Shown here: positions 18,344 through 63,884 of the stretch, one piece after another
Layout of the letters: every line of letters begins with the position of its first letter
Numbering within the stretch: position 1 is the first letter of the stretch
NCBI GenBank assembly: GCA_050010755.1
Contig: JBEKKK010000001.1
Coordinates: 1,373,237-1,437,236, forward strand
From: Candidatus Bathyarchaeia archaeon
GTDB lineage: Archaea > Thermoproteota > Bathyarchaeia > Bathyarchaeales > Bathycorpusculaceae
Length of the DNA stretch: 64,000 bases
Direction: 5' to 3'
The notes under the pieces: generated by a model
Told to the model about the DNA's origin: nothing
The model's input: only the letters and a program-made list of their open reading frames with translations
Database searches by the model: none
Position numbers and translations under genes: made by a program

Positions 18344-18394
18344 CAGCTAATATTAGGATCGTCAAAGTAATTAGCACATGAGGTGTTCTTCAAA

Positions 18395-19303
18395 ATGTCT
18401 ATCGGGGCCGTTGAAAATTTCAAAGTGCCTGCAGGGAAAGAGATAGACTTGAAAGCTTATGATCCACGTTGGGTCCCAAAATGGGCCAAATCCATGGAAG
18501 ACAAAGAAGGGAAAAAAGCAGTGAAGAGGCAAGCGTTAGATATCCTTGAGAAGAACAAGCAAAAGCTTGCAAACATGCAGGAATTGCTTTGGGCAAGCGA
18601 CACCTATTCAATGCTTATTATCCTCCAGGGAATGGACGCAGCGGGCAAGGACGGAGTGATCAGTCACGTGATGGCGGGCGTCAATCCCCAAGGATGCCAA
18701 GTCTTTGGGTTCAAAGCACCGTCTGAGGAAGAATTGAATCACGATTTCCTGTGGCGACACGTGAAAGTGCTTCCTGAGAGAGGGCGAATAGGTATTTTCA
18801 ATCGCTCATACTATGAGGATGTTCTCATAGTCAAAGTCCGCCCAGAAGTTTTGAAAACACAGAAGTTGCCGCCAGGGCCCAGAGACGAATCTTTCTGGCG
18901 TCAGCGATATGACGACATAAACGCGTTCGAACACCATCTACTACGGAACGGGACGATAGTTCTGAAATTCTTTCTGAACGTCTCAAGGGAGCAACAGAGA
19001 CAACGTTTACTCAAACGACTCGAAGATCCAAACAAGTATTGGAAATTCTCTTTCACTGATCTTTCAGAAAGAGAAAAATGGGATAAATACATGGAAACGT
19101 ATCAGGAGGTTCTCAGAGAGACAAGCACCAAATGGGCTCCGTGGTACGTCATTCCCGCAGACAAAAAATGGGTCACGTGGGCATCAGCCTCCGAGATCCT
19201 GACATCACAAATTGAGAATCTAGGCCTGAGGTATCCAGTTCTGAACGACGAGCAAACTATTGCTTTCAAAAAGGCAAAAGCAAAACTTGAAAAAGACCGC
19301 TAA
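18395..19303 (+). CDS. ppk2: polyphosphate kinase 2, probably class III
   Basis: QGMDAAGKDG, FKAPSEEEL.HDFLWR, FNRSYYEDVL, APWYVIPADKKW. Confidence 0.95.
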   Translation: MSIGAVENFKVPAGKEIDLKAYDPRWVPKWAKSMEDKEGKKAVKRQALDILEKNKQKLANMQELLWASDTYSMLIILQGMDAAGKDGVISHVMAGVNPQGCQVFGFKAPSEEELNHDFLWRHVKVLPERGRIGIFNRSYYEDVLIVKVRPEVLKTQKLPPGPRDESFWRQRYDDINAFEHHLLRNGTIVLKFFLNVSREQQRQRLLKRLEDPNKYWKFSFTDLSEREKWDKYMETYQEVLRETSTKWAPWYVIPADKKWVTWASASEILTSQIENLGLRYPVLNDEQTIAFKKAKAKLEKDR

Positions 19304-19332
19304 GACGAATCGAAAACCTTGGAAGAAAGAAA

Positions 19333-20157
19333 ATGGCAAGACTTGAGCTACTCCAATTAGAGACGAAACAAAAGAATCGCTCCGGAAAAGAGCGGGAAGA
19401 AATCATCTCCAGACATCAACCGCCTTGGAAAAGGGACTTCGCCAACTCTAAGCGCGAATGGCGTCGGTTGTTCGCGGAGACTCTGGGAACATTCTTTCTA
19501 TTGCTCGTGGCCGTAGGAGGCAGCATTGTTAGCGTATTGAACAAGGCAGTCATCAGTCCAGCAGGAGTGGCTGTAGTACCGGGTTTGATGGTGATGGTAA
19601 TTATCTTGTTCATGGGGAAAGTCTCTGGAGCACACCTGAATCCAGCTGTCAGCATCTCTTTTGCCGCACGCGGTGATTTTCCTTGGCGGCGTGTTCCAGG
19701 CTATATCGTTGCGCAATTGGTAGGATCCATTCTGGCATGTCTGTTTCTGAGGTCCATATTGGGAAACGTACCCGGATTCGGCGCCACCGAACCTGGAACC
19801 GGCATCAGCGATCTGCAAGCGATGCTAATAGAGCTCGTGCTTACGCTGGGTTTGGTAAGCACGATTCTCGGCACGGCATCCCAAGCGCAGAACGTTGGAC
19901 CTCTCTCCGCCATCGGCGTAGGCGGGTACATCGCCCTCACAGGACTATGGGCGAATCCGATAAGCGGCGCTTCGATGAACCCCGCGCGATCGTTTGGCCC
20001 AGACCTCATACTCTTCAACTTCACCCATTACTGGGTTTACGCCGTCGGACCAATCGTCGGCGGACTGATCGCTGTAGCATTTGCTTACATCCTCCGAGGG
20101 CCAGGTGGCGACACAGCAGCAATCCAGGCTGCCCAAGGAACTCTTGATCGTATGTGA
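19333..20157 (+). CDS. aquaporin / MIP channel
   Basis: SGAHLNPA and GASMNPARSFGP. Confidence 0.95.
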   Translation: MARLELLQLETKQKNRSGKEREEIISRHQPPWKRDFANSKREWRRLFAETLGTFFLLLVAVGGSIVSVLNKAVISPAGVAVVPGLMVMVIILFMGKVSGAHLNPAVSISFAARGDFPWRRVPGYIVAQLVGSILACLFLRSILGNVPGFGATEPGTGISDLQAMLIELVLTLGLVSTILGTASQAQNVGPLSAIGVGGYIALTGLWANPISGASMNPARSFGPDLILFNFTHYWVYAVGPIVGGLIAVAFAYILRGPGGDTAAIQAAQGTLDRM

Positions 20158-20334
20158 TTTTGCAAAGCTGATAAGTCCGTCGAAAGCGTCGGCATTAAAT
20201 TAAACGCTCACTCTTTCAAGAGCGCTTCAACGGGCATTACGCAGCCGGAAACAAGCTGTAAGTTTAGTAAATGCTTTCCTTTATTCGAAGGCGTTTGTCG
20301 AATCCGATTTCTAGTTCCAACAGTCCTTTGAAAC

Positions 20335-21927
20335 CTATCTGGCAACGGTCTCACAGGTGCACTTTACCTTGGAAACATCGAGTTTCTTCGCGAAGGCCGC
20401 GTGAAAAGCCTGTGCGTTCTGGGCCACGCTCCACTCTTCTAGGCTGCAGTCTTCATCTCCAAAGAGTGAAAGAAGAATTCTGTCTTTTTCAGCTTCTTTA
20501 AACTCCACTTTCTTCACTAGGCCACGATGGCTTCTGTCAAGTTTCTCTGCAAGCCTGAGGAAAACTGAGAGAATGATGATGATCTCCTTTGTGCGGTCGT
20601 CCAACCCGGTGCCTTTAAGAGCTTTCATTGTGGGAAATTTTTTCCTGTGAAACCGTGCTAGATTTGCCATTATCGCTATCTCTCTTTGGTCGAAGCCAAG
20701 AAGCTCGGCGTTGCCAATAATATAATGGGCGTGAAGGTGATGGTCGTTGAAAGAAAGAAAGTCGCCTATGTCGTGCAACATCGCACCGTATTTCAGAAGT
20801 TCTCTCTCTTCATCTCCAAGATCGTGTAATCCTGCTTTTCTGCCACTGTCAAAGAGTTGTAACGCTAGGGACGCGACAACTTCCGAGTGCCTTTCATCGA
20901 AATCGAAAGACCTCCCGAGTTGTAACACGGTTCTGTTCCGCATTGGAGTTTTCTGAAAGTCCTGAAAACCTTCAAATCTGGATAGGTAATCGACAAGTAG
21001 TCCGTCTCGCAGACCTTTGTAGCTCACAGTGATTTCGTCGAGGTCGAATTCTTCCATGATAGTTTCGATAATGGCGGCTCCAGCTATTATAATGTCAGCT
21101 CTTTCTGGGTTGATACCATGAATCTTTCTTCTCTCTTTGAGCGGTGAGGAGCAAAGAATCGGAACCAGCTTTTTCAAATTCTTTTTTGACAACACTAGAT
21201 TGCGGCCGTTTTCAGCATTCCTGAACATTCTGTTTGTGATTTCAGCTAGGTTGATGATTGTACCCGAGCTTCCGAACGCAAGCTTGGCTTGGACTTGCTT
21301 GACTCGAGATGCGGTTCTCAACATGTTGCCCCTCACGTACCGTTTAATGTGTTCGTAGACATGCCTAGGTACGGATTCAGTCCATCCTTCGCCAATAAAA
21401 TTCGCGGTAAGTCTTACGGATCCAAATTTAAGGCTATCCAGATAACACCATTTATATTGATTTCCTATGGCAATCTCCGTGCTGCCGCCGCCTAGGTCAA
21501 TGAAAATCGCTTTTTCCTCCCCAATGTCCACTCCATTTGACACACCTAGATATATCAAGCGGGCTTCTTCTCTGCCTGAAATAACATGAACGTTGAGTCC
21601 TGCTTCAGTCAGTAGTTGCTGAAGAAATCCTCTCTGATTTCGCGCTTCGCGAATCGCAGATGTTCCGACAGCAATAATCTCAGTAGCACCGTAGGTCTTT
21701 GCAAGTTCAGCGAACTTCCTGCATACGAGGATTGTGCGTCTCATGGCTTCCGGTTTTAGAATGTCGTCCTTAAACTCTTGTTCGCCCAGTCTGACAACTT
21801 CTTTCTCTTGGCTGATCACCGTTGAGGAAAGATTCGGGTTAATCCTCACAACTAGAAGGCGAACCGAGTTGGTTCCTATATCGACAAACCCAACAACTTG
21901 ACCCGTCGTATTCAAGGCTTTTCCCAT
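20335..21927 (-). CDS. ppx: Ppx/GppA exopolyphosphatase with HD domain
   Basis: DIGTNSVRL, EEARLIYLG, DLGGGSTE, LHDIG. Confidence 0.95.
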   Translation of the reverse strand: MGKALNTTGQVVGFVDIGTNSVRLLVVRINPNLSSTVISQEKEVVRLGEQEFKDDILKPEAMRRTILVCRKFAELAKTYGATEIIAVGTSAIREARNQRGFLQQLLTEAGLNVHVISGREEARLIYLGVSNGVDIGEEKAIFIDLGGGSTEIAIGNQYKWCYLDSLKFGSVRLTANFIGEGWTESVPRHVYEHIKRYVRGNMLRTASRVKQVQAKLAFGSSGTIINLAEITNRMFRNAENGRNLVLSKKNLKKLVPILCSSPLKERRKIHGINPERADIIIAGAAIIETIMEEFDLDEITVSYKGLRDGLLVDYLSRFEGFQDFQKTPMRNRTVLQLGRSFDFDERHSEVVASLALQLFDSGRKAGLHDLGDEERELLKYGAMLHDIGDFLSFNDHHLHAHYIIGNAELLGFDQREIAIMANLARFHRKKFPTMKALKGTGLDDRTKEIIIILSVFLRLAEKLDRSHRGLVKKVEFKEAEKDRILLSLFGDEDCSLEEWSVAQNAQAFHAAFAKKLDVSKVKCTCETVAR

Positions 21928-24251
21928 TCCACAATCAGATTTCTTTTGAAGACCGCTTCAAACAAATCCTTCTTCTTATTAAGTGCCTGCTCTTCCAGGG
22001 CTGGGTCCAACCGCACTAGGCATGATAATTTGACTCTCTTTGGGCCTACGCTGGCTTTCATTCTCTCGACGACAGACTGATGCGTGAAGTCTAGAGCATC
22101 AGCTACTCGCAGAATGGAAGAAAGCAAAGTAATTCTTCGCTTTGTGGCTGCGGTTAACGAGGCAAGGTTATACTGGTTTTCCTTGGGCTGGCCCTTCCGG
22201 TGATACCTTGCGATGCTTCCAACTACGCGTCTTTCCAAAGACGTAAACGACAACTTAGCGTCATTCAATATCAGTCTGAGCGAGGCCTTATGGTGCCCTC
22301 GCGTGCCTTGGGACAGACCGACATCGTGAAGGATTGCGGCGCATTCGAGCCACCACTGCTCTTGTGCTTTCATCTTGTGCAATTGACCTAGACTACCAAA
22401 TAGTGTCAAAGCCAATTTTCTGACCTGCTCCGGATGATCAGTGTCCCGCCAGTACTTCTTGGCGATCTCTCTGGTGATTTTCACGATTTCCCCGCATTGG
22501 AGTTCACTGCGATGGCTTTTCGCCCGGTCTTCCCGCACAACGGCATCAATCGATACCCCGCGAAGCAACATTTGTGCAAAGCTTTCGGGCAGTCTTTTTT
22601 TCCTGAGAGTCTCTGCTGCGGACTCTACGTCATAGTTTAGTCTGACAAGCTGCACAGAAAAAGGGTTAGAGTTGACCACTGCATACGCCGTCTGGGGGTT
22701 CCCATCGTCTGGTCTTCCAACGCTTCCAGGATTGATGAATGAGACGCAGTCGACTTCCCTTGCAAACTGCAGGTGCGAATGACCCATGATGACCACATCG
22801 GCGTTCACGGTTCTGGCGAGCTCTTTCAGTCGCTTTTCAGGGGTATCGGGGTAGATGTGCTCGTCGATAGAATCAGGGCTTCCATGGACCATAAGCAGCC
22901 TTTTACCGGCCATTTCAAACGTGATGCTGCGGGGCAGGGAGCGAAGGTAGGTTTCGCATGATTTCGCGAGCTCTTTTTTGGCAACCCGCAAAGCAAGCTT
23001 CTTTTCGCCTTTCTTCTTGTCGTCCTTCTTCATCACCTCAGAGTCGAAATTGCCAAGAACGCTGACAGCATTCTTGGCACGAAGGAGCTCAACGACTTCG
23101 TTGGGGAACGCACCGTAACCGAGGACATCGCCAGCGTTCAGGAATGCGTCTACACCTCTTCTTTCGGCATCTTGAATGACCGCTTCCAGCGCGTGAAGGT
23201 TGCCGTGAACGTCGGCTAAAACTGCAATCTTCGCACTAGGGCTTGCCAGAGTCTCCCTAATCTTTTTTGCAGCAGTCACGAATCCAGGGTTCATTTCTTG
23301 CATCAGTTTTTCAAAGAAATTCTTTTCTTTCGTCGCTTCCCAAAGCCGAACAAAACTTCTATAGTGGGTTTTTCTTCTGTCTCTTATGTGTTCCACAAAC
23401 TTCGAGAGCGCTTGCTCTGCCTTGTTGATGTCCTCTCTGTCTTCGCCTTTTGACAGGAGTTCGTTCTTCACTTCGGCAATAAATCTTGGAATGTACTCAA
23501 TCCAGACGTCGCAGTCGTGCATTTCGCCTAGCGTGTCTTGGAATTTCTTGATGATGCCTATCTGTTCTGAAAGCTCATCCTTATACAAGGGAGAGAAGAC
23601 TTCCATAGTGTAACGTAGCCACTTCGCGCAAATCCTCATCTCATGATGCCTGAGGATGTCGTTTTCTCGATAAACGCAGTCTTCCATTGCTAGGAAGTCG
23701 TCTACTTTTGCCGAAACGTGCAAGTATGCTTTTTCCTGTACAGAAGACGAATCCAAATGTGCGGTCGAAGTTTCTTTGAGTACCTGATCGCAGAGTTCTG
23801 TGATGCTCTGTAGAACGCCTGAATCCTTTAGCTTTTGAAGTCCACTGATGACTTTCGCTTGCGCGTCGAGTCTGCGGTCTCTTTGGCGAGTGAGCAAGAG
23901 ATCTAGCCCTTTGCTTGCGTTGCCGACTCCGATTTTCTTTGAATAATTCTCGATGAAGATAATCTGCACGTCGAGATCCCGTGCTGCTCCCAAGAACCTC
24001 GTCACTTTCTTTATTTCTTTAATCCATTCTCTGTAACGTTTCTTTCGAAAGCATTTTCGGAAAAGAGGGAGCGCAGCTCTTATTCTGCGTGACGTGACTC
24101 GCATCTTATGTACGTACTCTTTGTCCTCACTGTTTTGTACTCCGTCAATCTGACTTTGGAAAGTCCCAATGAGTTTGAGGAGGGTCTCTGCTCCAAATCG
24201 GCAATAGCCGGAGCCTTTCTCACAATCGTATGGCTCAACGCGCGTATCCAT
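21912..24251 (-). CDS. CHAD + calcineurin-like metallophosphoesterase + HD fusion protein
   Basis: VHKMRVTSRRIR and LGEMHDCD (CHAD); ADVHGN, GD, GNFD, HGSP, GHSH, NPGSVG (phosphoesterase); LHDVG..RVADALD (HD). Confidence 0.88.
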   Translation of the reverse strand: MDTRVEPYDCEKGSGYCRFGAETLLKLIGTFQSQIDGVQNSEDKEYVHKMRVTSRRIRAALPLFRKCFRKKRYREWIKEIKKVTRFLGAARDLDVQIIFIENYSKKIGVGNASKGLDLLLTRQRDRRLDAQAKVISGLQKLKDSGVLQSITELCDQVLKETSTAHLDSSSVQEKAYLHVSAKVDDFLAMEDCVYRENDILRHHEMRICAKWLRYTMEVFSPLYKDELSEQIGIIKKFQDTLGEMHDCDVWIEYIPRFIAEVKNELLSKGEDREDINKAEQALSKFVEHIRDRRKTHYRSFVRLWEATKEKNFFEKLMQEMNPGFVTAAKKIRETLASPSAKIAVLADVHGNLHALEAVIQDAERRGVDAFLNAGDVLGYGAFPNEVVELLRAKNAVSVLGNFDSEVMKKDDKKKGEKKLALRVAKKELAKSCETYLRSLPRSITFEMAGKRLLMVHGSPDSIDEHIYPDTPEKRLKELARTVNADVVIMGHSHLQFAREVDCVSFINPGSVGRPDDGNPQTAYAVVNSNPFSVQLVRLNYDVESAAETLRKKRLPESFAQMLLRGVSIDAVVREDRAKSHRSELQCGEIVKITREIAKKYWRDTDHPEQVRKLALTLFGSLGQLHKMKAQEQWWLECAAILHDVGLSQGTRGHHKASLRLILNDAKLSFTSLERRVVGSIARYHRKGQPKENQYNLASLTAATKRRITLLSSILRVADALDFTHQSVVERMKASVGPKRVKLSCLVRLDPALEEQALNKKKDLFEAVFKRNLIVEWEKP

Positions 24252-26379
24252 GCCATATGCCTCTGTTCTCGATAAGCCAAGATTGAGAGTTGATTCTTCT
24301 CTCACCTTCCTCAGGTTTTACTCTAACGTATGTTCCGTCAGACAGGAGTTTTCTGGCTTTCACGTTGTCGCTGAGGTGAATTTTCAGGATGTTTTCCAGA
24401 ATTGCATGCTTTATCAGCGGATCAGGAACTGAGAAGAGCACCTCCACTCTTTCGTTAAGGTTTCTGAACATCATGTCCGAACTTCCGATTAGAACCTCAT
24501 CTGCTCCTCCGTTTTTGAAATAGTAGATCCGGGCATGCTCTAGAAAACGTCCGACTATGGATATTACGGAAATATTATCGCTTATTCCTTCCACACCCGG
24601 CCTCAGACAGCATAGGGCTCTAACGTTGAGGTCAATCTTCACACCTGCCATCGATGCTTTGTACAAGGCTTTGATTACGTCAGTTTCTTCTAGGTTGTTG
24701 AGTTTGAATGCCAAGTAGCCGCCCCCTGATTTCCGCTGAGAGGCTATTTCTCGGTCGATGCGTCTTAGGATCTCAGTTTTCAAAGTCCTCGGCGCCACGA
24801 GCAAGTACTTGAAGTCTTCTTTCTGGAATCCACGCATCAAGACACCGAAAAGGTCCGAAAGCTCCGCGCCTATCTCGGGTCTGGCCGTCAAATAACCAAT
24901 GTCGCCGTATATCTTGGTTGTTACCGCGTTGTAGTTTCCTGAACCGATGTGCGAGTATCTTTTGATGCCTGTTTTTTCTCGTCTCACGATGAGACAAAGT
25001 TTCGCGTGAACCTTGAAGTTCGGGAAGTTGTAAACTGTGTGCACGCCAGCAGCTGCCAGTCTCCAAGTAAGCCCTATGTTGTTCTCCTCATCGAACTTGG
25101 CCTTAAGCTCGATGATGGCTGTCACTATTTTTCCTTTTTTTGCCGCCTCTATCAGAGCATCAACAATCGGCGATTTTGAATCCATTCTGTAGAGTGTGAT
25201 GTATATTTCCAAAACGTTTTGGTCTTTGGCGGCTTCCCTCAGCAGGTTGATTATGACTTCAAAACTGTCATAGGGGTGATAGAGAATGATGTCTCTCTTC
25301 GCGATGGTTTCAAAGAGGCTTGTGCCATGCGTCAGCAAGGGTGAAATGCTGGGGAGGAATGTTTTGTCTTTTAGGTCGGGTCTTTTTGTTTCTAACAGTT
25401 GCCAAAGGTCCACAAGTCCGAGCGGGCCGTCAGACTCATAAAGCAGATAGCTTGGTAACGCGGCAATGTTGGCCAAGGTTTCACTCAGCTCCTCGGGCAA
25501 ACTCTTATCGAATTCAAGCCTGCTGGCGAATCCTGTTTTCCTGTTTTGCAGACTATTCTTCACTGAAACTAGGAAATCTGAAGATTCATCCATGACGATG
25601 TCTATTTCGGCGTTGCGCGTTATCCTGAATGGGTACGACACGATTTCTAGGTTCGAAAACATCAGGTCAATGTTGTTTTCTATCAAGTCTTCTAAGAAAA
25701 CAAGCTCGACCTCGTGTGATTCAGTTTCGTTGAAAGATGTAGCCTTGTACCCATGTTTTGGGATTTTTATCAGTCTTCTAAATTGTTCCGTCGGGATTTC
25801 CAGTACGTGATAAGAGCGATGAGCGGTCGCGTCTTTTGCAACAACGAGGAGGTTGATGCGGAGATTTTCAATAAAAGTTTGAGCTATGTCGGGGACGAGC
25901 GTTTTCAAGGTTGGAAGAACCCTGTCTTTGAAGAACTCCCGCAGCGTGTGCTTCTGTTCATTCGTTAACTCCTCAACTTTTCGAATGTGAATATCCTCTT
26001 TAGATAGGGCAGGAACCAATTCCTGCTTCCAACAATCAGCATGTTTTTTGATTAGTGGAATTATCTCTCTTCTGGTGACTTCAATTTGATCGTACGGTGT
26101 CATCCCGTCTGTGGATTTTTCAACCGAGCCTTTGTTGACCTTTTTGAGGAGCCTAGGAACCCTTGTCATAAAGAATTCGTCAAGGTTGCTTCCGCATATG
26201 GCGAGAAACTTGACCCTTTCAAGTAGAGGGTGCCAGGGGTCCTGTGCTTCCTCCAGTATGCGCGCGTTGAATCTTATCCAACTGAGTTCTCTATTCAAGA
26301 ACATAGTTGGGCTATCAAATGATGTTTTCTGAGTTGAGTCTTTTGTTGTATTTCCGCCCTTGCCTGAAGCTGTCAACAA
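24235..26379 (-). CDS. ppk1: polyphosphate kinase 1
   Basis: NRELSW, SNLDEFFM, HPYDSF, KVHAK, GRFLEHARIY. Confidence 0.96.
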   Translation of the reverse strand: MLTASGKGGNTTKDSTQKTSFDSPTMFLNRELSWIRFNARILEEAQDPWHPLLERVKFLAICGSNLDEFFMTRVPRLLKKVNKGSVEKSTDGMTPYDQIEVTRREIIPLIKKHADCWKQELVPALSKEDIHIRKVEELTNEQKHTLREFFKDRVLPTLKTLVPDIAQTFIENLRINLLVVAKDATAHRSYHVLEIPTEQFRRLIKIPKHGYKATSFNETESHEVELVFLEDLIENNIDLMFSNLEIVSYPFRITRNAEIDIVMDESSDFLVSVKNSLQNRKTGFASRLEFDKSLPEELSETLANIAALPSYLLYESDGPLGLVDLWQLLETKRPDLKDKTFLPSISPLLTHGTSLFETIAKRDIILYHPYDSFEVIINLLREAAKDQNVLEIYITLYRMDSKSPIVDALIEAAKKGKIVTAIIELKAKFDEENNIGLTWRLAAAGVHTVYNFPNFKVHAKLCLIVRREKTGIKRYSHIGSGNYNAVTTKIYGDIGYLTARPEIGAELSDLFGVLMRGFQKEDFKYLLVAPRTLKTEILRRIDREIASQRKSGGGYLAFKLNNLEETDVIKALYKASMAGVKIDLNVRALCCLRPGVEGISDNISVISIVGRFLEHARIYYFKNGGADEVLIGSSDMMFRNLNERVEVLFSVPDPLIKHAILENILKIHLSDNVKARKLLSDGTYVRVKPEEGERRINSQSWLIENRGIWHGYAR

Positions 26380-26746
26380 TTGTTCTTCATCTTGATGGGA
26401 TTTTCAGCCATTCGGCAGATAAACTGTTTGTCCTTTGGGAGTTCCATAACAAGCATTTATCGTTAATCCTATAGACTGAAAAGAACGTATAACCGTTATG
26501 AGGCTTTTTGTTCAGCGTTGTTGCTTCCTTTGGATATCTATCATTGGTTTTGTTACGTGAACACGAAATACCTCGTATTCGAAGAGGGGTCGCTTCTTGT
26601 TCATCGCAGACTTCCATCTCACTATAGAGGACGAGAACATGCTTAAGGGCTCCCGAAGTAGAAGCTATAGTCGCACGTAAGCTATATAGATACAGCGTTG
26701 AGACAGCATAGCAAGGGTTTTATTTGACGGAAAGAATGAATTACCT

Positions 26747-27193
26747 ATGAATTCTACAACTATGAAGGAAATGGGCTTCACTGAGTGGTACCCGTTGAAG
26801 AGTCTCTCGTTCTCTAACCTACCGTACAACAAGGGCAGCGTTTTTGTGATAATAGACAAGACTCTGTCTGGAAAAACAGTCTCTGACGTAATGTACATCG
26901 GACGTTCGAAGAAACCGACAAGAAAAATCTTGGGTGGCTACTTTTCAGGCTATGGAGGAAAAAGCAGCAAAAAGATTAACAGCAAATTGTTCGATGAAGG
27001 ATACATGGATAAAACCGCAATTAGCTGGGTCATAAGCGATAATCCCAAGACGATGCAGAAAGAATTGTTGAGCAAATTCAGCGAAGAACATGGCGAATTT
27101 CCAAACTGGAATGTCAAGAACAAACCGCAAGAAAAAACCACACGCGTGCGCGCCAAACCAGCAGCTCGCCAACCTCACAAAACCCCCTCTTAA
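26747..27193 (+). CDS. basic protein with degenerate GIY-YIG-like fold
   Basis: GSVFVI..MYIGRS..HGEFPNWN; Lys/Arg-rich tail. Confidence 0.55.
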   Translation: MNSTTMKEMGFTEWYPLKSLSFSNLPYNKGSVFVIIDKTLSGKTVSDVMYIGRSKKPTRKILGGYFSGYGGKSSKKINSKLFDEGYMDKTAISWVISDNPKTMQKELLSKFSEEHGEFPNWNVKNKPQEKTTRVRAKPAARQPHKTPS

Positions 27194-27221
27194 CAACAGA
27201 CAAAAAACTCGGTTCGACTAC

Positions 27222-27755
27222 TCATTTCGACGTTTTTCTAGAATAATAGCTGACTAACTCTTCTGTGGACCAAGGCAAGCAATCCTTAATGCTGAAGCCT
27301 AACAGCTTGGCATACTTGTGAATAGTATCTGCGTCTTCAGCTTCTATTTCTAGGAACTCAGGAATGTAAGCATGCTCCCCCTTGTACTTGTCTATGTCAA
27401 AGTGCACTTGGCCGAGACTATAACTCAATCTGTCCTTCTTCGTGCTTGAAGTCGTGGACAAGCCCAGAAACTCTAGAATCTTTTTCGCCTTTGCCATGTC
27501 CGAAACAACGACTCCGATCTCCTCAACGTCTTTGACAGCTTTATTGCTCAGGAATTTCTTGAATGTTAGAATGGTCTTGTTATCCTCTCTTCTTAATCTA
27601 ACAACGTTCTTCGCTTTTGACATCGCACTGTCCTCGAAGTCGAAAAACAACGATTCAATCTCACCATCAAACACTTTCTTAGCGCCCAGACGAATCAGCT
27701 TTTCTTCGACCTGACGTCCATCAACGTTCAAAATTTTGACTTCTATCTCTTCCAT
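27222..27755 (-). CDS. CYTH / class IV adenylate cyclase family triphosphate-tunnel enzyme
   Basis: EIEVK, VRLRRE, LTFK, FLEIE. Confidence 0.9.
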   Translation of the reverse strand: MEEIEVKILNVDGRQVEEKLIRLGAKKVFDGEIESLFFDFEDSAMSKAKNVVRLRREDNKTILTFKKFLSNKAVKDVEEIGVVVSDMAKAKKILEFLGLSTTSSTKKDRLSYSLGQVHFDIDKYKGEHAYIPEFLEIEAEDADTIHKYAKLLGFSIKDCLPWSTEELVSYYSRKTSK

Positions 27756-55833: not shown

Positions 55834-56949
55834 TTGATTCAATTGATGATGCTCCCTGAGAAGCTGCGAAAAGTGTTGGAGAGAACTGTCAAAGAGCTGG
55901 CCGCCAAGGAGAATGTTTATGGGGTGGGGCTTTTCGGGAGTTGGAGCCGAGGGGACGCCGAACCTTCAAGCGATGTTGACTTGCTCATACTTGACAGTAA
56001 CGACTTTGCGTACGAGTTCGTTGAGAGGGTAGATAGGGGCGGTTTTCTAATCGATCTAGACCATGTTACGAGACGGTGGATTCGAGGCCAGATTCCTCCG
56101 GAGATAGATCAGAAACTCTACGAATCTCAGATACTCTACGACAGAGACTGGACCCTGACGAACACCAAACTCTTGATGGCGAAGTCTTACGGGTCACCCG
56201 AGAGGGTTGACATTCGAACAGATGCTCACGTCGTGGAATCTGACATATACTTGAGCAGGGCGACCTCGGCACTTTCGAGGCATGACTTCAGAAGCTCACA
56301 TCTCTTTGCCACAGTCGCCTTTGAGAACGCTCTGAAGGTTCTGATTGAGATAGCCCTGCAGCCGCTTTCGAACAGTCGATTCATGGAGAAAGCTGAAGGC
56401 GCAGCGGCGAAACTGGAAATGCAAAACCTTTTTGATCAGTACAAAGAGATGACAGGCTTCGGCACGGTTGACCAGACACAGGCCAAAGACAGATTGAGTC
56501 TCTTCAAAAACGTTTGGGACGACGTCTATGCCGTTGCAAACAAGAATCCTCAAACACTCGAATCTGCCCATTTCAAGGTCAGGAAGCGGCTCAGCTACTA
56601 TTTGAACCCAGTTTTCATTCAAGGCGTCGTGAAACGCGCAAGCGCCATGATCGAGGCCGAAAAAAACGTCGAAGTTGCGCACTACCTCGGGGATATAGTT
56701 CTAGACCTTGTCGAAAACTATGCATGGTTAAAATCTCTCATTCTAAAGGTAAAGATAAACTACACGACACTGATGGGGACGTTGGAAGGTTTGGAAGGAA
56801 GAGAGTCCGCAAACTACAGAAACATAACAGCAATTCTGGATCTGAGCGACATCGATAAAACCGTTGCAGCAAATGAAAACAAAGCGACTCGAGATGCAAT
56901 GCTCAAGATACGACGAGACAGGAAACTCTTAATCAAAAGCGCGCGCTAA
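55834..56949 (+). CDS. minimal nucleotidyltransferase-domain protein with helical (HEPN-like) C-terminus
   Basis: LFGSWSRGD..SDVDLL. Confidence 0.8.
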   Translation: MIQLMMLPEKLRKVLERTVKELAAKENVYGVGLFGSWSRGDAEPSSDVDLLILDSNDFAYEFVERVDRGGFLIDLDHVTRRWIRGQIPPEIDQKLYESQILYDRDWTLTNTKLLMAKSYGSPERVDIRTDAHVVESDIYLSRATSALSRHDFRSSHLFATVAFENALKVLIEIALQPLSNSRFMEKAEGAAAKLEMQNLFDQYKEMTGFGTVDQTQAKDRLSLFKNVWDDVYAVANKNPQTLESAHFKVRKRLSYYLNPVFIQGVVKRASAMIEAEKNVEVAHYLGDIVLDLVENYAWLKSLILKVKINYTTLMGTLEGLEGRESANYRNITAILDLSDIDKTVAANENKATRDAMLKIRRDRKLLIKSAR

Positions 56950-57224: not shown

Positions 57225-57571
57225 CCAACCAGCTTTCAGTCCGCATGCCTGTTGCCAAATCCTGAAGTTCTGCCCAGTCTGTCATCTTTTTTCACCAAAC
57301 CATGCGCACGCGATCTGAGTTTGCAGCCAGAGCATTATTGGCTGTTGCTGTAGGTCAGCTATTATTGGAGTTGGACAGCGTCAAACGCATTATTTCTGTT
57401 CCTTCTGTAGGTAAACGTGTCCTTCTTCTGTTTTGAAGAACCGTGAATCTCGTTTAGGAAGCTTAAGCCTAATATAAAACAACTTATTAGACCTAGCTCA
57501 GGAAAAAAAGTGCGCAAATGCCGACGGTAATGTCGCATGCGCACAGTGCTTTGTAGAAGTGGCCCGGAAAA

Positions 57572-57671
57572 AGCCCGGTGGAGGGAAGGTCACCTTTCCG
57601 CCGACTGTAGTGGACAAGCATAGCGGGCTTTGGACCCGCCGACGAGAGTTCGAATCTCTCCCGGGCTACCA
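57572..57671 (+). tRNA. tRNA-Gln(UUG) with a 24-nt intron (57582-57605) between positions 10 and 11; CCA encoded
   Basis: spliced form AGCCCGG TG GTGT AGTGGACAA GCAT A GCGGG CTTTGGA CCCGC CGAC GAGAG TTCGAAT CTCTC CCGGGCT A CCA folds into a full cloverleaf. Confidence 0.92.
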
Positions 57672-57699
57672 TTCTCTAGAGTTAAATTCATACTTTCTA

Positions 57700-57745
57700 A
57701 AATGGCGAACAGGGGACTCGCCATTTCCCTCCTTTCTTTTTCTGT
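57700..57745 (+). terminator. 9-bp hairpin followed by a pyrimidine/T tract after the tRNA
   Basis: aaatggcga-N9-tcgccattt then ccctcctttctttttct. Confidence 0.45.
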
Positions 57746-57775
57746 GCTCTGGAAAGTAAAAATTTTGGCGGTCGG

Positions 57776-58627
57776 ATGTCAAAAGTCAAATTTGACTTCA
57801 GTACTGTTCGCACTCGTGTCATTCCGATTTTGAAGAGGGTTGAGGTTGAGGATTATCCTACTAAGATTGGACGGATATATGGTTGGAGTCGTCAACATGT
57901 TTGCTATTATCTTGGGAAGCTGGAGAAATGCGGTCTTGTCAAGCGGAAAGTTCGCAGCCGTGCCGTTTTCTATGAGTTGACGGGTCGAGGTAAAACTTTT
58001 CTCGCATCATGTGAGGACGTCGTCTTCGGTAGTGGTGTGTACCGGCTGGACCGGTGCCAGGTGCGGTTTGTGATTGTGAGTGAGGGTTGTTTGCCCGTGG
58101 ATTTTAGGCGTGTGGAGATGGTGAATTGGACGGCTTTGTTGGGTTTGGAGCAGGGCGTTATGGTTAGGCATACGAGTCGCAGTTGGATTGTGCACGTGGA
58201 GACAGTGTACGGAAAGCATCCTGGCGAATTGTTTGTGTTAGCAAAGAATTTGGCAGATCGTGTGGCCAAGAGTTTGATGATGAAGTACGGTTGCAGGTTG
58301 AGTGAGGGTGAGGTTTGCCGGGGTTATGAGCTGAAGGTTGATGATCCTGTGGCTAGGCTGCTTGCGAGGTACTTCTGTGTTAGCACGCCAGAGAGGAAGA
58401 TAGATCATAGTCCAGGCGTCGGGGAAGGTGAGCTGGAGCATTTCGGCAGGGACGCTGCGGTTGAGTATTTGCTTATGCCGGAGCGTGTGAAGAAGCTCGA
58501 GGGCCAAGTGCAAGCGTTGCATGTGGATCTGGAAGAGCTAACTGGGACTCTCCGAAAACTGTTGAATATTGAAGGCGCTGGGGGGCCGAGTCCTGATCAG
58601 GGCAATCTGGATAGGTATGTGAGTTAG
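57776..58627 (+). CDS. N-terminal wHTH plus unknown domain; probable element backbone protein
   Basis: YPTKIGRIYGWSRQHVCYYLGKLEKCGLV..YELTGRG; G/T-rich coding strand; C-terminal coiled coil. Confidence 0.75.
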   Translation: MSKVKFDFSTVRTRVIPILKRVEVEDYPTKIGRIYGWSRQHVCYYLGKLEKCGLVKRKVRSRAVFYELTGRGKTFLASCEDVVFGSGVYRLDRCQVRFVIVSEGCLPVDFRRVEMVNWTALLGLEQGVMVRHTSRSWIVHVETVYGKHPGELFVLAKNLADRVAKSLMMKYGCRLSEGEVCRGYELKVDDPVARLLARYFCVSTPERKIDHSPGVGEGELEHFGRDAAVEYLLMPERVKKLEGQVQALHVDLEELTGTLRKLLNIEGAGGPSPDQGNLDRYVS

Positions 58628-58846
58628 GGGTGTTTCTGGAAGTGGTATTGCGTTCAAAGTCTGCTTTGGAGCTGGCGTTGAGGCATGGTAAAAGTCCATG
58701 CTTTTTGGGTTGTGCCTTTCTTGTCTCTATTGATGTAGGTTGGCCATGCTCAGGTTTCTCTTTCCTCAACATTGTCACTATACTATGGTGAGCTTTTCGG
58801 TATGGAAATGAACGCTGAGCCTGTTCCAACACCGTGAAAAAAGCGT

Positions 58847-59272
58847 TTGCAAGAGGTGAAAATTGGCCGGGTCAAGTACACTCTACAGTTGGTTAAAGGG
58901 ATTCAGCGCGACATCGAAGAGATCAAATTGACGCAGCGCACTATTCTTGCGGGTCTCAAAGGGCTCTTTCATTTCGAAAAGCCCATGATTCAGAAGATCG
59001 CCTGCGTCGACGAGGTTGACACTGAGTTGTTGGAACTGCTCTTTAAAGCAGGCAACGCCGGGCTGTTGCCGAAGGATCTTGCAGTTCGCTTGAACCGGTT
59101 TGGGGTTGAGCGGCATCAAGTCAGCCGCAGAATTCTCCATATGAACAAGCGTTTGAAGAGGGAACTAGGTGAGCAATTGGCTGAGAAACGAGGTTGGCAT
59201 TGGGCCTTAACAAGTTTTGCGTTTGATGTTTGGGGAGAAAGTGAAGAAACGAAGCAGACGAAAACAGAGTAA
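58847..59272 (+). CDS. coiled-coil plus wHTH-like hypothetical protein
   Basis: DEVDTELLELL..GLLPKDLA..RHQVSRRI..KRGWHWALT. Confidence 0.7.
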   Translation: MQEVKIGRVKYTLQLVKGIQRDIEEIKLTQRTILAGLKGLFHFEKPMIQKIACVDEVDTELLELLFKAGNAGLLPKDLAVRLNRFGVERHQVSRRILHMNKRLKRELGEQLAEKRGWHWALTSFAFDVWGESEETKQTKTE

Positions 59273-59359
59273 GGCCGCGTGTCAAAGCGCGCGCGAAGCA
59301 ATATCTTGACCAGCGCGCGGGTCTAAGCTTTATATATCAAACATCGAAAAACACAAGCT

Positions 59360-59887
59360 ATGTCAGACACGTCAGTTTTTGCTCTTCTCGGCGGATTGGC
59401 TGCCTTTGTCGGCATTTCGCTATTAATATCTTTGATAATCATCAAAGCAATTTCGAATGCAGCAGAACGATCGCAGCTTCCTAAGGGCAGTATTCGAGAC
59501 GTACAGGAGGGCATATTCATAGTATGGTTGGCGTTGACGGTTGTATGGATACTTCAGAGTCTAGGCTTTACTTCACTTTTATCTTCCCTCACTCTCTCGG
59601 GAATAATAGGCTTGGGCATAACACTGGCGTTACAATCGACGTTCTCAAACCTTTTGGCGGGAATCTGGCTTTTGCGCGAGAACGTGCTACGTTTAGGCGA
59701 TAACATAAAAATCCTAGGAGTGGAGGGAACCGTCATCAAACTGAGTTTTCGAACCACCTGGCTCAAGACCAGCGAAGGCAACATCGTCATAATGAGCAAT
59801 TCGACACTCTACAATGGTCCATTCACAAACCTCACTGCAACAAAGCGTCTATCTGAAAAATTCGAAAAGAAAAACGAATCTCTTTAA
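59360..59887 (+). CDS. short MscS-family mechanosensitive channel
   Basis: GLGITLALQSTFSNLLAG..LGDNIKI.GVEGTV..FRTT. Confidence 0.88.
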   Translation: MSDTSVFALLGGLAAFVGISLLISLIIIKAISNAAERSQLPKGSIRDVQEGIFIVWLALTVVWILQSLGFTSLLSSLTLSGIIGLGITLALQSTFSNLLAGIWLLRENVLRLGDNIKILGVEGTVIKLSFRTTWLKTSEGNIVIMSNSTLYNGPFTNLTATKRLSEKFEKKNESL

Positions 59888-59933
59888 ACTAGCGCGCGCT
59901 AAGCACGCATTACATCAAGAAGGTGTGCGCTGT

Positions 59934-60491
59934 TTACTTTTCTGTGCTTTTCGATGGGGGCATATGGAAACTGACAAATAGCATATCATGAGCGATTTCT
60001 GTCTTAGGCACAAGTCCAAGGGTAGTTTTGACGAATTGGCCTATGGCATTCTTCAAGTATATCGAGTATTTCCTTCCAAGATCATGATGGAAAGTAATTA
60101 TGCACTGCGCTCCGTCAACTTTGATTTCGCTAGTACCGAGTCCGCTGTACTTGCAATAGTTTGAGATGGTCTTCAGAAGTGTCTCCGCTTTCAACTCCTT
60201 GAACCAGAAGAGCGTTACTGCCTTGAGGGTTGGGCTTGCAGTGTTGGTGGCGATTTGTTCAATCTTGCACTCGTCAACCTCTTCGAGGATAGATTTGAAG
60301 GTCTGCCTTGCAAAGGAGATAAATCCAAATCTCTCAGTGTGTCTGTCCCACTCTACATATTTCGTCATGATTCTGTTGATTAGTCCATTGACAGTCAAGT
60401 CGCTTTTCTCAGCGTCGTCTCGCAATATGGAATCCAATTCCTGATTGAGACGAACTGTTCTCAAAACGGTTTTCTTCCTCTTGACACTCAT
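59934..60491 (-). CDS. ribbon-helix-helix regulator with C-terminal ligand-binding-like domain
   Basis: RTVRLNQELDSILRDDAEKSDLTVNGLINRIMTKY; divergent from the cargo operon. Confidence 0.7.
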   Translation of the reverse strand: MSVKRKKTVLRTVRLNQELDSILRDDAEKSDLTVNGLINRIMTKYVEWDRHTERFGFISFARQTFKSILEEVDECKIEQIATNTASPTLKAVTLFWFKELKAETLLKTISNYCKYSGLGTSEIKVDGAQCIITFHHDLGRKYSIYLKNAIGQFVKTTLGLVPKTEIAHDMLFVSFHMPPSKSTEK

Positions 60492-60602
60492 GATCATGCA
60501 CTCTTTGTTACACAGAGTAGTACAAACGCACTTTCTGTAAACTTCCTAATTAAATATCCTTTCGCACCTACGTATGGTAGGTTAAAAGAACAATCAAGAA
60601 AG

Positions 60603-61403
60603 GTGAACTTGATGGAAAGAATGTTGGTGGTAGTTTTTGAAAATGAGTTAAAAGCGTACGACGGATTTAAAGCTCTGACTGAACTCGATTCCGAAGGAAG
60701 TATTTCTATCCACGCCCAAGCTGTCATGAAGAAGAATGACGATGGAACAGTTATCGTAAAGCATAAGGGAGAGGATTTTCCGATTCGCACAGTTGGCGGA
60801 ACAGCAATCGGTGCTCTGATCGGACTTCTAGGGGGACCCATCGGCCTTGGCATCGGTGCGGTTGCTGGAACTCTTACTGGGAACATCTTGGACATGAACC
60901 GAGCTGGAGTCAACGCAGGGTTCCTTGATGACGTATCCAAGAAACTCACACCCGGCAAATGGGCGATAGTTTCAGACATCAACGAAGAGTGGATAACTCC
61001 TGTTGATACCCGAATGGCAGTGCTGGGCGGCACTGTATTTCGCATCACACGCCAAGATGTCGAGAGTGAACAAGACGCAAGAAGCGTGGCAGCTCTGAAA
61101 GCGGACATTGCTAAGTTGAAGACAGAGCAAGCTAAGTCGCGGGCAGAACAAAAGGCCAAAATCCAGTTAAAAATTGATGACTTGAATAAAAAGTTGCATG
61201 TCAAACGAGAACAGGCGAAACAGAGGTTCCAGCAAGAACAAGAAGAAGCCAAAGCTAAGATGGAGGCATTGGAAAAGAAAGCAGCGAAGGCGAAGGGTGA
61301 AGCCAAAGCGAAAATTGAAGCACGGATCGCCGACATAAAAGAGAAATCGAAAGAGTCAAGAGAAAGATATCAGGTGCTATGGGAGGACGATGTGTTTCTT
61401 TGA
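60603..61403 (+). CDS. DUF1269 glycine-zipper protein with long charged coiled-coil tail
   Basis: LVVVFENE..GTAIGALIGLLGGPIG..FLDDVSKKLTPGK. Confidence 0.82.
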   Translation: MNLMERMLVVVFENELKAYDGFKALTELDSEGSISIHAQAVMKKNDDGTVIVKHKGEDFPIRTVGGTAIGALIGLLGGPIGLGIGAVAGTLTGNILDMNRAGVNAGFLDDVSKKLTPGKWAIVSDINEEWITPVDTRMAVLGGTVFRITRQDVESEQDARSVAALKADIAKLKTEQAKSRAEQKAKIQLKIDDLNKKLHVKREQAKQRFQQEQEEAKAKMEALEKKAAKAKGEAKAKIEARIADIKEKSKESRERYQVLWEDDVFL

Positions 61404-61984
61404 ACCTATTGGAGCAGCCGGGTTGGCTCCGGGGTTTAGAAGTAGTAACTGGCTTGTTGGCCATGGTGTTCGGAGTTCTAGTGTTCGTCTTTCCAGGCTG
61501 GGGCATCGGGACTCTTATTGTCATGCTATCAATCGGTCTTTTCTTTAGTGGGATAAGGTCGATCTCTCTCATAGGTTACAGGAGCCTCTCCAGCAGCCTG
61601 CGGGCAATGAGTGCGATATCAGGAATCATATCCTTGATTCTTGCATTGTTGGTCGCGTTATTTCCGGGGTATGGCGAGCTGACACTGTTGATACTCGTGT
61701 CATTTGGACTGATTGTGTATGGATTCGGAAGGATATTCATCGCCTCCACGCTCAAGACAACAGCGGGTTGGATTAGAGGCATGATGGTTGCCGTGGGTGT
61801 GCTCGACGTCATTCTATCGGTGGTCGTGCTCGTTCTTCCTAGTCTCGCGTTGCTGACCTTCGCAGTTGTCCTCTCGGTAGTGCTGCTCGTAAGTGGAGCT
61901 GAGATGATCGTCTCCGGAGCGATTGGTCGCACATGGCTTGGAGATCTTGTGAAAGCTGCAAAGGACGAAATGGATGGAAAATAA
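61400..61984 (+). CDS. HdeD/DUF308 family membrane protein
   Basis: six TM helices in repeated G..P units; TTGA overlap with the upstream gene. Confidence 0.78.
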   Translation: MNLLEQPGWLRGLEVVTGLLAMVFGVLVFVFPGWGIGTLIVMLSIGLFFSGIRSISLIGYRSLSSSLRAMSAISGIISLILALLVALFPGYGELTLLILVSFGLIVYGFGRIFIASTLKTTAGWIRGMMVAVGVLDVILSVVVLVLPSLALLTFAVVLSVVLLVSGAEMIVSGAIGRTWLGDLVKAAKDEMDGK

Positions 61985-62063
61985 GTGTTGTCACTTGTCC
62001 CTGTTGGTTTGGAAGCAGTCCTGCGTACACGTGCACAAACAATGAATAGGAGGTGAAAAAAGT

Positions 62064-62555
62064 TTGACTGATATGGTCGTACTAGCGTTTGACAGCGAAA
62101 GTGGGGCAGATCAGGGAAGAAAAATACTGGTGGAACTGAACAATGAATACGTGCTTAACCTTGTTGATGCCGTTGAGGTTGTTCGGCACGCCGATGGAAA
62201 AGTCAAGGTGAAGAACATTCGCAACCTAACAGGCATCGGAGCAATGGGTGGAAGTTTCTGGGGACTACTCTTCGGTATTCTGTTTTTCGCGCCAGCTCTC
62301 GGAGTTGCCGTCGGAGCAGTATCAGGCGCCATCGCAGGCCACTTTGCACAGTTCGGTGTTAGCAAAGGTTTCCTAAAGCAGGTCGAAGACTCAGTGAATT
62401 CGGGAACCTCAGCTCTCGCAATCATGGCCTCAAACGTTGCCGTCGACAAGACCGTTCAAGCGCTGAGCCCACTTCATCCGAAAGTCATTCGCAGTTCTCT
62501 TTCCACCGAGCAAGAAGCAAAACTCAACGAAGCCTTCGGCACACTCACGAAGTAA
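62064..62555 (+). CDS. DUF1269 family protein
   Basis: DAVEV..DGKVKV..GGSFWGLLFGILFFAP..GTSAL..SSLSTEQE; SD ggaggtg. Confidence 0.88.
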   Translation: MTDMVVLAFDSESGADQGRKILVELNNEYVLNLVDAVEVVRHADGKVKVKNIRNLTGIGAMGGSFWGLLFGILFFAPALGVAVGAVSGAIAGHFAQFGVSKGFLKQVEDSVNSGTSALAIMASNVAVDKTVQALSPLHPKVIRSSLSTEQEAKLNEAFGTLTK

Positions 62556-62650
62556 CCCAGCCAGGAAATACTCATGCCCCAAGAAAGCAAGGCTCCACAG
62601 TGCCACTTTTTTTTGGCCAAACAAACAAAGTGTCTAAATAGGAATGATCC

Positions 62651-63340
62651 ATGTTGCCCAACTCACGCTTTTCAAACCAAACTAGAATAATCAATACGTA
62701 TGTTCAGAAAGTATATTTCTGGATGTTCATAGGCTTAATAATAACAAGCATTACTGCTTACTTTGTTTCGCAGGATCCAAATCTCTACAACGTGATACTG
62801 GGCAATGATATTGTTTTTTATGGGTTATTAATCGCACAGTTTTTAGCCATAGTCACTGTGTCTGCTTTTATAAGACGAATACCTGATAACCTTGCAGAAA
62901 TCACATTCGTGTTATACTGCTTCCTCACAGGGCTGACCCTTTCAGCAATCTTTTTGGAGTTTACAATAAGCTCTATAGCTTATGTAGTTTTGATTACGGC
63001 CGCTATGTTCGGTTTCATGAGTCTTTACGGATACGTAACAAAAACAGATCTTACATCGCTAGGCAACATTGCAACGATGGCCTTATTCGGGATTATTCTG
63101 GCATTAATCGTTAATCTATTCCTTATGAATTCGGCTCTCGACACGATACTCAGTATCATTGGTGTATTGGTTTTTTCAGCCTTCACGGCCCATGACACTC
63201 AGAAGATCAAAAGTACTCTGATGGATAAGGATGAAGATCTTATAAAGAAAGAAATACTGGGTGCTCTTAACCTCTATCTGGATTTCGTCAACCTTTTCTT
63301 GGACCTACTCGACTTATTTGGAAAAAGGAGGTCAGACTAA
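62651..63340 (+). CDS. Bax inhibitor-1/YccA family membrane protein
   Basis: KVYFWM.GL, YGYVTKTDL, DTQKIK, GALNLYLDFVNLF. Confidence 0.93.
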   Translation: MLPNSRFSNQTRIINTYVQKVYFWMFIGLIITSITAYFVSQDPNLYNVILGNDIVFYGLLIAQFLAIVTVSAFIRRIPDNLAEITFVLYCFLTGLTLSAIFLEFTISSIAYVVLITAAMFGFMSLYGYVTKTDLTSLGNIATMALFGIILALIVNLFLMNSALDTILSIIGVLVFSAFTAHDTQKIKSTLMDKDEDLIKKEILGALNLYLDFVNLFLDLLDLFGKRRSD

Positions 63341-63398
63341 TCCGTTATCGGGCCTCATTTCCAAGTTTGATTAAAGTGTCAGTAGGAGGTGAAAACTA

Positions 63399-63557
63399 GT
63401 GTCAAGTGAAATGGAGAAAATCAAGAAAAGATTCGAAGAATTTGAAGAAGGTATGAAGAAACATATGTCTGAGGCGAGACAGGCGGACAAGAAAAGGATT
63501 GATGAGCTAGATGCTCGTGTGAAAGCTCTGGAAGAGAAACTGAAGAAGAAGACGTAG
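63399..63557 (+). CDS. 52-aa charged coiled-coil protein
   Basis: SD ggaggtg, GTG start; MSSEMEKIKKRFEEFEEGMKK..IDELDARVKALEEKLKKKT*. Confidence 0.7.
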   Translation: MSSEMEKIKKRFEEFEEGMKKHMSEARQADKKRIDELDARVKALEEKLKKKT

Positions 63558-63884
63558 CTTCAGCACAGAAACGTAGTTGTTTGTTTCAACACTGCGCATA
63601 AGGATAATCTATCTTCCTTATTTTCTTTGTTTGGATTCTAGCGCGGTAACAGATGCACTTCTTCCAGTCTTTTGTATTTTTTCACAGGCGCGCGCGCTAG
63701 AAGTCCGAGAGGAACAACATGCAGCAGCGAAACAATAAAAAGTATAAAATTAACGCTAGAGAGTGGTATCTCCCGGGCTACCAACAAACTCTAGCCAGGA
63801 CGATATTCAGGTTCTCGTCTTTGCGAAATCATTTGAACCAAAAGACTGAAATTGGTTATCGGTCAAACTGTTATTGGATTAAAC

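Follow-up and report, generated by a model that had tools for sequence, protein, structure and literature searches.

Introns of archaeal tRNA genes are thought to persist only where a bulge-helix-bulge (BHB) can form. The systems closest to the one described here are the relaxed-BHB introns (hBH, HBh' and bulge-helix-loop) of Thermoproteales, Thaumarchaeota and Asgard archaea, which, in the accessible parts of their descriptions, are short, lie away from position 37/38 and escape gene finders, as does the intron reported below; they also have the same 4-bp central helix between exon and intron, the same 3-nt bulges containing the cut sites, and one outer helix. Non-canonical introns are described, in the accessible sections of two papers (PMC5829648, PMC4033280), as needing EndA of broad specificity, either (alpha-beta)2 or epsilon2, in agreement with what the initial annotation of this locus had given as established; an alpha2 enzyme with the specific loop also counts as broad in specificity. 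In Asgard archaea, according to the available portions of that literature, tRNAscan-SE overlooks introns of the D-arm more often than any others. As stated in the accessible part of its paper, tRNAscan-SE 2.0 includes a further 60 nt of flanking sequence so that introns close to the gene ends are caught, and the accessible part of the supplement to that paper contains no occurrence of Bathyarchaeota or of intron positions. The insertion point found here, 10/11, had been called unusual, which stands insofar as it is absent from the positions named in the accessible part of a review (3/4, 20/21, 22/23, 25/26, 29/30, 30/31, 45/46, 53/54, 56/57, 59/60, 'etc.'), but D-stem and D-arm introns, as far as the same partial sources go, were already known as a class. 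Unlike the relaxed-BHB introns in the accessible descriptions, the present intron lies at 10/11, would build its central helix from acceptor-stem bases and, in every listed carrier, occurs together with a leader that repeats the 5' acceptor strand. Its host belongs to Bathyarchaeia, for which no treatment of tRNA introns was found in the accessible text of the literature searched.

Pairing by sequences outside the mature tRNA is also known from split tRNA genes (Nanoarchaeum equitans) and permuted ones (Thermofilum pendens, Cyanidioschyzon merolae), where such sequences likewise pair to build the EndA structure. In those genes, as described in the portions of the literature at hand, the flanks pair together and form part of the BHB, whereas in the present gene the predicted partner of the leader is the mature 3' acceptor strand, and the leader would contribute indirectly, by setting free the strand that forms the BHB; the gene itself is neither split nor permuted. 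A further parallel is offered by engineered RNase P riboswitches (PMC7897497, PMC8925977), in which a 5' leader hides or uncovers parts of the tRNA; as proposed for the present gene, the leader alters the fold of the tRNA precursor and thereby controls its processing. In the available excerpts of those studies, the riboswitches are synthetic, either bacterial or eukaryotic, and act on the access of RNase P, whereas the present leader occurs in nature and is proposed to act on the excision of an intron. A leader that repeats the acceptor strand was not found described in the accessible text of the literature searched. As an intron, the insert is of a known type; what is new is the proposed stand-in strand in the leader.

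The locus lies in a 64-kb window (the whole stretch of DNA that was analysed), and the coordinates of its features are collected in Table 1. Read in order, the gene consists of AGCCCGGTGG, the 24-nt insert, TGTAGTGGACAAGCATA, the anticodon arm with TTG, the T-arm, CCGGGCT and ACCA. That it is an interrupted tRNA-Gln with the insert at 10/11 is almost certain. Once 57582-57605 is deleted from the window, ARAGORN returns a 76-nt tRNA-Gln(ttg), whereas the unspliced gene receives no call, which is the outcome that the proposed comparison with and without the insert had anticipated. A deletion series in ARAGORN proved uninformative as a test of the junction: calls were obtained in 651 of 1943 artificial deletions, so that ARAGORN alone cannot place it. 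The junction is instead fixed as GGTGG|TGTAG by comparison with intronless genes, since the predicted spliced product is identical over positions 1-73 to five of the 82 complete intronless Bathyarchaeia tRNA-Gln(UUG) genes among the listed loci (L046, L061, L070, L089 and L120). Three of these five (L061, L070 and L120) were scanned with Rfam RF00005, and each matches at 61.9 bits over the full length, model positions 1-71. Sequence reading further reveals A1-U72 and A73, which we take to be identity elements. Self-splicing by a group I or group II intron was rejected, as the catalytic core of such introns needs hundreds of nucleotides and the insert has only 24 nt (20-30 nt in relatives); no match to Rfam intron families occurs within the window.

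Table 1. Features of the interrupted tRNA-Gln(UUG) locus, with positions counted from the first nucleotide of the 64-kb window
Feature	Position	Strand	Basis or remark
Leader copy of the 5' acceptor strand, GTGGCCCGG	57559-57567	+	Core GCCCGG at 57562-57567
Spacer AAAA between leader copy and tRNA position 1	57568-57571	+	Sequence
tRNA-Gln(UUG) gene with 24-nt insert between G10 and U11	57572-57671	+	
Exon 1, tRNA positions 1-10, AGCCCGGTGG	57572-57581	+	Columns invariant in 14/14 listed genes
Exon strand of the central 4-bp helix, C5-U8	57576-57579	+	Sequence
5' bulge G9 G10|A	57580-57582	+	Predicted cut after 57581; first intron base A in 14/14 listed genes
Intron, 24 nt, AGGGAAGGTCACCTTTCCGCCGAC	57582-57605	+	Sequence; comparison with intronless genes
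Intron hairpin GGGAAGG/CCTTTCC	Arms 57583-57589 and 57593-57599; loop 57590-57592	+	
3' bulge A C|T	57604-57606	+	Predicted cut after 57605; penultimate intron A invariant in listed genes
Exon 2, tRNA positions 11-76	57606-57671	+	Identical to intronless genes
Anticodon TTG	57630-57632	+	Sequence
3' acceptor strand; A73; encoded CCA	57661-57667; 57668; 57669-57671	+	Sequence
Predicted partner of the leader copy (3' acceptor strand, A73, C74)	57661-57669	+	Folding
Direct repeat of the tRNA 3' end, 15 nt exact (57657-57671)	63769-63783	+	BLAST E 0.01; candidate att copy only

Gene finders perform poorly on this gene. ARAGORN reports zero tRNAs on the whole 64-kb window, and its intron options (-i, -i116, -ps) applied to the unspliced gene give either nothing or, at -ps90, a false tRNA-Ser. 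The Rfam tRNA model yields a partial match at 57604-57660 (model positions 9-63) with 31.9 bits against a cut-off of 29. The expectation that standard scanners would miss the gene was therefore correct for ARAGORN, which is blind to it in the window, and only half correct for Rfam, which sees part of it. When 13 related insert loci among the listed matches were submitted to ARAGORN, 10 were left uncalled and the remaining three received a wrong or misplaced gene.

The relatives were collected by a scan of species-representative genomes with a 21-nt stretch of the anticodon arm as query, which returned at least 120 loci, and those listed are nearly all labelled Bathyarchaeia or Bathyarchaeota. 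The matches listed comprise 92 loci with intronless tRNA-Gln(UUG), six with other length variants or inserts, nine with no visible 5' part (a contig end, or a 5' half missing upstream) and 13 with an insert exactly between G10 and U11 (L009, L015, L030, L040, L042, L067, L069, L077, L078, L088, L090, L101 and L111). The insert thus occurs at the identical point in 13 of the 111 listed loci with a visible 5' part, representing 13 further species; the window and these 13 loci are referred to below as the 14 genes. Both the boundaries of the insert and the identity of the gene, as first annotated, are upheld by these additional listed species and by the intronless genes that match the product. 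The introns are 20-30 nt long and fall into 13 distinct sequences in the 14 listed genes. An encoded CCA is present in 14/14 interrupted genes and in 53 of the 82 intronless genes with complete ends among the listed loci. An upstream TFB gene is common to the window and six of the listed carriers, two of which also share a nucleotidyltransferase gene at 87% DNA identity, and these shared neighbours indicate that the locus is orthologous. The 14 genes probably descend from one ancestor.

These comparisons bear directly on the view that the locus is a disrupted pseudogene, in which the 24 nt are never removed and another gene supplies tRNA-Gln(UUG). The absence of any ARAGORN tRNA in the window and the partial Rfam match could be read in this way, and the search of the source genome covered the 64-kb window. 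However, the exons are those of working intronless genes, and the insert is found at the same point in 13 other listed species, where its hairpin shows compensatory changes and its pairing segment is invariant. Moreover, no second match was present, among the matches listed, in the 13 carrier assemblies, and one of these (L009) is a complete 2.35-Mb chromosome. A pseudogene is accordingly the least probable of the alternatives considered, and very improbable in itself. The favoured reading is that the locus represents a functional tRNA-Gln(UUG) gene carrying an EndA-type, protein-spliced 24-nt intron at the first step of the D-stem, and for this reading as a whole, including the helper role of the leader discussed below, a probability of about 0.6 seems appropriate.

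The structure through which the intron would be excised has been examined across the same set. The motif originally drawn (C5-U8 paired with GCCG, bulges GG^A and AC^T, hairpin GGGAAGG/CCTTTCC) is present, and the pairing of exon C5 G6 G7 U8 with an invariant intron GCCG (57600-57603) is possible in 14/14 listed genes, so the earlier proposal of a central helix made of acceptor-stem bases 5-7 and U8 holds throughout. The last intron base varies freely (C, T, G or A among the 14 listed genes). In the same alignment, 94% of the hairpin cells are paired, with changes on both sides at two of the pairs, and the whole structure is 92.8% paired, compared with 42-54% in slid controls. The intron-side helix h' contains 3-7 consecutive pairs across the 14 listed genes, whereas the exon-side helix h is missing, its sole possible pair being C4-G12. 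The absence of h places the motif in the relaxed HBh' class, as anticipated from the weak outer helix noted at first. Under a rule of four central pairs plus an intron-side helix of at least 2 bp at the exact boundary, a BHB can be drawn in 14/14 listed genes, compared with 536 of 100000 shuffled introns and one of 71 other insertion sites. In a recent Asgard preprint, chance rates of 1-3% are given in the accessible part for a comparable rule, likewise applied at exact boundaries; a looser rule in the accessible part of that preprint (four central pairs plus one outer helix) would class the present motif as 'canonical'. A strict hBHBh', as defined in the accessible part of PMC7714728, needs outer helices h and h' of at least 2 bp each, and h is absent here. 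The geometry was also checked against the accessible portion of the review, in which the first two anticodon bases sit in the central helix of a 37/38 intron; it matches the canonical arrangement, where the central helix joins exon bases immediately 5' of the cut to intron bases immediately preceding the 3' cut. It is probable that the intron is removed through this BHB-like motif. A second BHB cutting at -1/+1 was considered and discarded, as sequence inspection revealed no consistent pairing. None of the 60 ORFs of the window contains a tRNA_int_endo (EndA) domain.

The energy models complicate the strict form of this motif. Because the hairpin begins with the same GG as G9 G10, the helix can slip into a bulge-less form, in which G9 G10 pair with the CC needed by the hairpin. 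The slipped register is better than the strict bulged fold by 1.2-7.8 kcal/mol in 14/14 listed genes, and it is the register that appears in the MFE folds. Since the bulged register is never the predicted optimum, the enzyme would have to capture a minority fold. According to these models, confidence in a strict BHB would be lowered, and confidence in a protein-captured BHB would not. It could also be proposed that the insert is removed via another structure, either a bulge-helix-loop, in which acceptor pairs 1-4:69-72 are kept and stacked under C5-U8:GCCG, or cuts at 9/10. Such a view draws on the absence of the exon-side helix, so that the 3' cut would fall in an open junction under any model, and on the ability of some archaeal enzymes to cut bulge-helix-loop substrates, as reported in the accessible part of PMC12397907. 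Furthermore, the last intron base is G in four of the 14 listed genes (L042, L015, L030 and L101), so that in these cuts at 9/10 would give an identical product. In the remaining ten listed genes, however, only cuts at 10/11 yield the product of the intronless relatives, and the folds that include the leader predict displacement of the whole true 5' strand, beyond bases 5-7. Removal through either of these structures is therefore very improbable, though slightly less so than a pseudogene. For excision through the BHB-like motif at 10/11, the initial expectation that cutting after the second base of each bulge restores the cloverleaf is in line with the ARAGORN call on the spliced form and with the five identical intronless genes.

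An intron at 10/11 places a particular constraint on the precursor. At this position, the central helix has to draw on the acceptor stem, and because three of its four bases belong to that stem, the splice motif and the cloverleaf are mutually exclusive. The initial annotation had recognised that the precursor borrows acceptor-stem bases, and bases 5-7 would indeed be used; the point is answered by a feature outside that first reading, a leader copy of the 5' acceptor strand. The core of this copy, GCCCGG, occurs within 40 nt upstream of the gene in 14/14 interrupted genes, 0/92 intronless genes and 0/6 other variants among the listed loci. The co-occurrence of leader copy and intron gives a Fisher p of 9e-18, a value to be read with the knowledge that the lineages are not independent; given the probable common ancestor, the 14-to-0 association counts lineages, not events. 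The spacer between the copy and position +1 measures 3 nt in ten of the listed carriers, 4 nt in two (the window and L101), 9 nt in L030 and 19 nt in L015, and the leader outside the copy is unconserved among the 14 listed genes. In the listed genes, the base preceding the copy is G or A and pairs with U72, the next leader base is a U opposite A73 in 10/14, and the next a G opposite C74 in 8/14. Both the leader helix and the central helix are invariant and show no co-variation, so that their support comes from conservation and energy models. The possibility that the leader copy is the true exon 1 was rejected, since exon 2 would then lose U8, G9 and G10, which are present in all listed intronless relatives.

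Folding of the 14 listed genes, either with a 30-nt leader included or with the leader cut off, changed the predicted structures markedly. With the leader, the MFE structure pairs the copy with the 3' acceptor strand and the bases from C5 onward with the intron in 13/14 listed genes; in these 13, the probability of the leader helix is 0.93-1.00 and that of the true acceptor stem at most 0.03. The exception is L101, with its additional D-loop insert: here the MFE structure retains the usual acceptor stem, and the leader helix reaches a probability of 0.25. For the central helix, the 14 listed genes give probabilities of 0.17-0.99 when the leader is included and 0.00-0.05 when it is not. When the leader is absent, the BHB fold is 7.6-14.4 kcal/mol worse than a cloverleaf-type fold in 14/14 listed genes, whereas with the leader it beats the cloverleaf-type fold in 10/14. 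RNAalifold on a plain MAFFT alignment predicted the usual acceptor stem without a leader helix, which is explained by three of the 14 leaders being out of register; on a motif-anchored alignment of all 14 it returned the leader helix together with the helix from C5 onward.

Based on these observations, a plausible sequence of events can be outlined. The leader copy would first capture the 3' acceptor strand, and the true 5' acceptor strand, thereby left free, would form the splice helix with the intron GCCG. EndA would cut at both bulges and a ligase would join the exons. As the splice helix would be gone after ligation, the true acceptor stem could then displace the leader copy, and RNase P would trim the 5' leader. 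From sequence comparison and folding models we infer EndA cleavage, splicing before 5' maturation and a helper role of the leader copy. The odds lean slightly towards the copy acting as a helper in the manner described. The stronger proposal, that the copy is a selected, dedicated cis-acting 'stand-in strand' which holds the 3' acceptor strand and forces splicing before RNase P cleavage, stands at about even odds.

A different account accepts that the intron is spliced and regards the leader copy as a neutral relic, left by the event that created the intron or by a short duplication, or assigns it another role, for instance in setting the transcription start or in the timing of RNase P; in that case EndA would simply capture the splice helix, or the helix would form during transcription, ahead of the synthesis of the 3' acceptor strand. 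Several observations are compatible with such an account. Both the splice helix and the hairpin fall inside the first 35 nt of the tRNA, so that transcription passes them about 55 nt ahead of the 3' acceptor strand, and a kinetic window would exist even if there were no helper. In addition, the synteny described above allows that the carriers share one ancestor, in which case the co-occurrence could be inheritance, and the lack of co-variation in the leader helix and its non-use by RNAalifold on the plain alignment point the same way. On the other hand, the copy has remained intact while the rest of the leader has diverged and the spacer has come to range from 3 to 19 nt, and it is missing from all 92 intronless and all six otherwise variant listed genes. 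It is also an exact competitor for the 3' strand, extended opposite A73 in ten and opposite C74 in eight of the 14 listed genes, and its removal changes the predicted folds sharply. A relic, or a role of another kind, is thus unlikely, although it carries far more weight than the pseudogene or other-structure alternatives, and the leader copy as a helper of splicing is the reading retained here.

The position of promoter-like motifs may be relevant to the extent of the transcribed leader. In the window, a promoter-like CTTATTA is located at 57483-57489, at -89 from tRNA +1. The corresponding motif lies at -85 to -106 in L067, L069 and L077, and at -41 to -49 in L009, L078 and L042 (-41 in L009 and L078), and its median position in the 54 listed intronless genes that have it is -53.5. 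This wide difference in distance among the carriers implies that leader length is not uniform. Given the usual archaeal TATA-to-start spacing, we estimate that the transcripts of L009 and L078 might begin close to the leader copy.

The 3' end of the gene is repeated exactly some distance downstream (Table 1), and this one 15-nt repeat is what supports the att site named in the initial annotation, as a candidate. Between the repeats (57776-63557), no integrase was identified by Pfam, PHROGs or NCBIfam. The 6.1-kb segment enclosed by the repeats (57672-63768) encodes wHTH and Arc-like regulators, a truncated MscS-like ORF, DUF1269, DUF308 and Bax1-I, and may represent a decayed integrated element, or the repeat may have arisen by chance. 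In the listed carriers, similarity to the window ends about 25 nt past the tRNA, and none is seen from 63784 onward. Separately, extra tRNA-Gln 3' halves were observed in L113 and L114 (on the same contig, 4.2 kb apart), in L104 and L116 (on the same chromosome) and in L005. These extra halves extend from the anticodon arm to the 3' end and are preceded by no 5' half or by an unrelated one, a pattern left by elements integrating into this tRNA; L113 is called by ARAGORN as a tRNA-Gln with a divergent 5' half.

Several further features were noted in the window and in the collected loci. The genes near the tRNA are archaeal and encode TFB, SUI1, a saccharopine dehydrogenase and a nucleotidyltransferase. 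Immediately upstream of the tRNA, the gene at 55834-56949 encodes a 371-aa product with an N-terminal nucleotidyltransferase domain only and weak MntA-like and HalB-like matches, and it is kept beside the tRNA in L067 and L069. Elsewhere in the window, positions 11373-27755 contain a dense phosphate/polyphosphate cluster, encompassing PhoU, a Pst-type ABC transporter, a second PhoU-MazE-like protein, PPK2, an aquaporin-type channel, Ppx/GppA, a CHAD-metallophosphatase-HD fusion, PPK1 and CYTH. Other inserts also occur in tRNA-Gln(UUG) genes of the collection. L008 and L079 (regions some 60 nt upstream and some 30 nt downstream of the anticodon arm) contain one insert in the 3' part of the D-arm and another in the T-loop; L017 contains an insert near 25/26, upstream of the anticodon arm; and L101 (273-415) has, besides its 10/11 intron, a further D-loop insert of about 17 nt. 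L008, L079 and L017 have no leader GCCCGG, and ARAGORN is blind to L008, L017, L079 and L101. Finally, the contigs of L016, L041, L078 and L079 carry a Bathyarchaeia-type tRNA-Gln and are filed as Limnocylindrales, Acidoferrum and Acidiferrales (bacterial bins), and L078 also has TFB and SUI1 neighbours; these bacterial labels are probably binning errors in public records.

A central helix that competes with the acceptor stem offers a direct test of the dependence of archaeal tRNA intron persistence on the BHB. Within the accessible text of the literature searched, the leader copy would be the first natural spare-strand precursor found that makes such a site spliceable, and the proposal leads to a clear prediction: if the six leader bases are removed or mutated, splicing should fail. 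Because ARAGORN overlooks the gene in the window and Rfam scarcely detects it, Bathyarchaeia genomes may be wrongly scored as lacking tRNA-Gln(UUG), and integration sites at this tRNA may likewise be overlooked. If the arrangement is general, introns near the ends of archaeal tRNAs would be tolerated only where a stand-in exists in the leader or trailer, which would provide both a new rule for the persistence of tRNA introns and a new signal for finding hidden ones.
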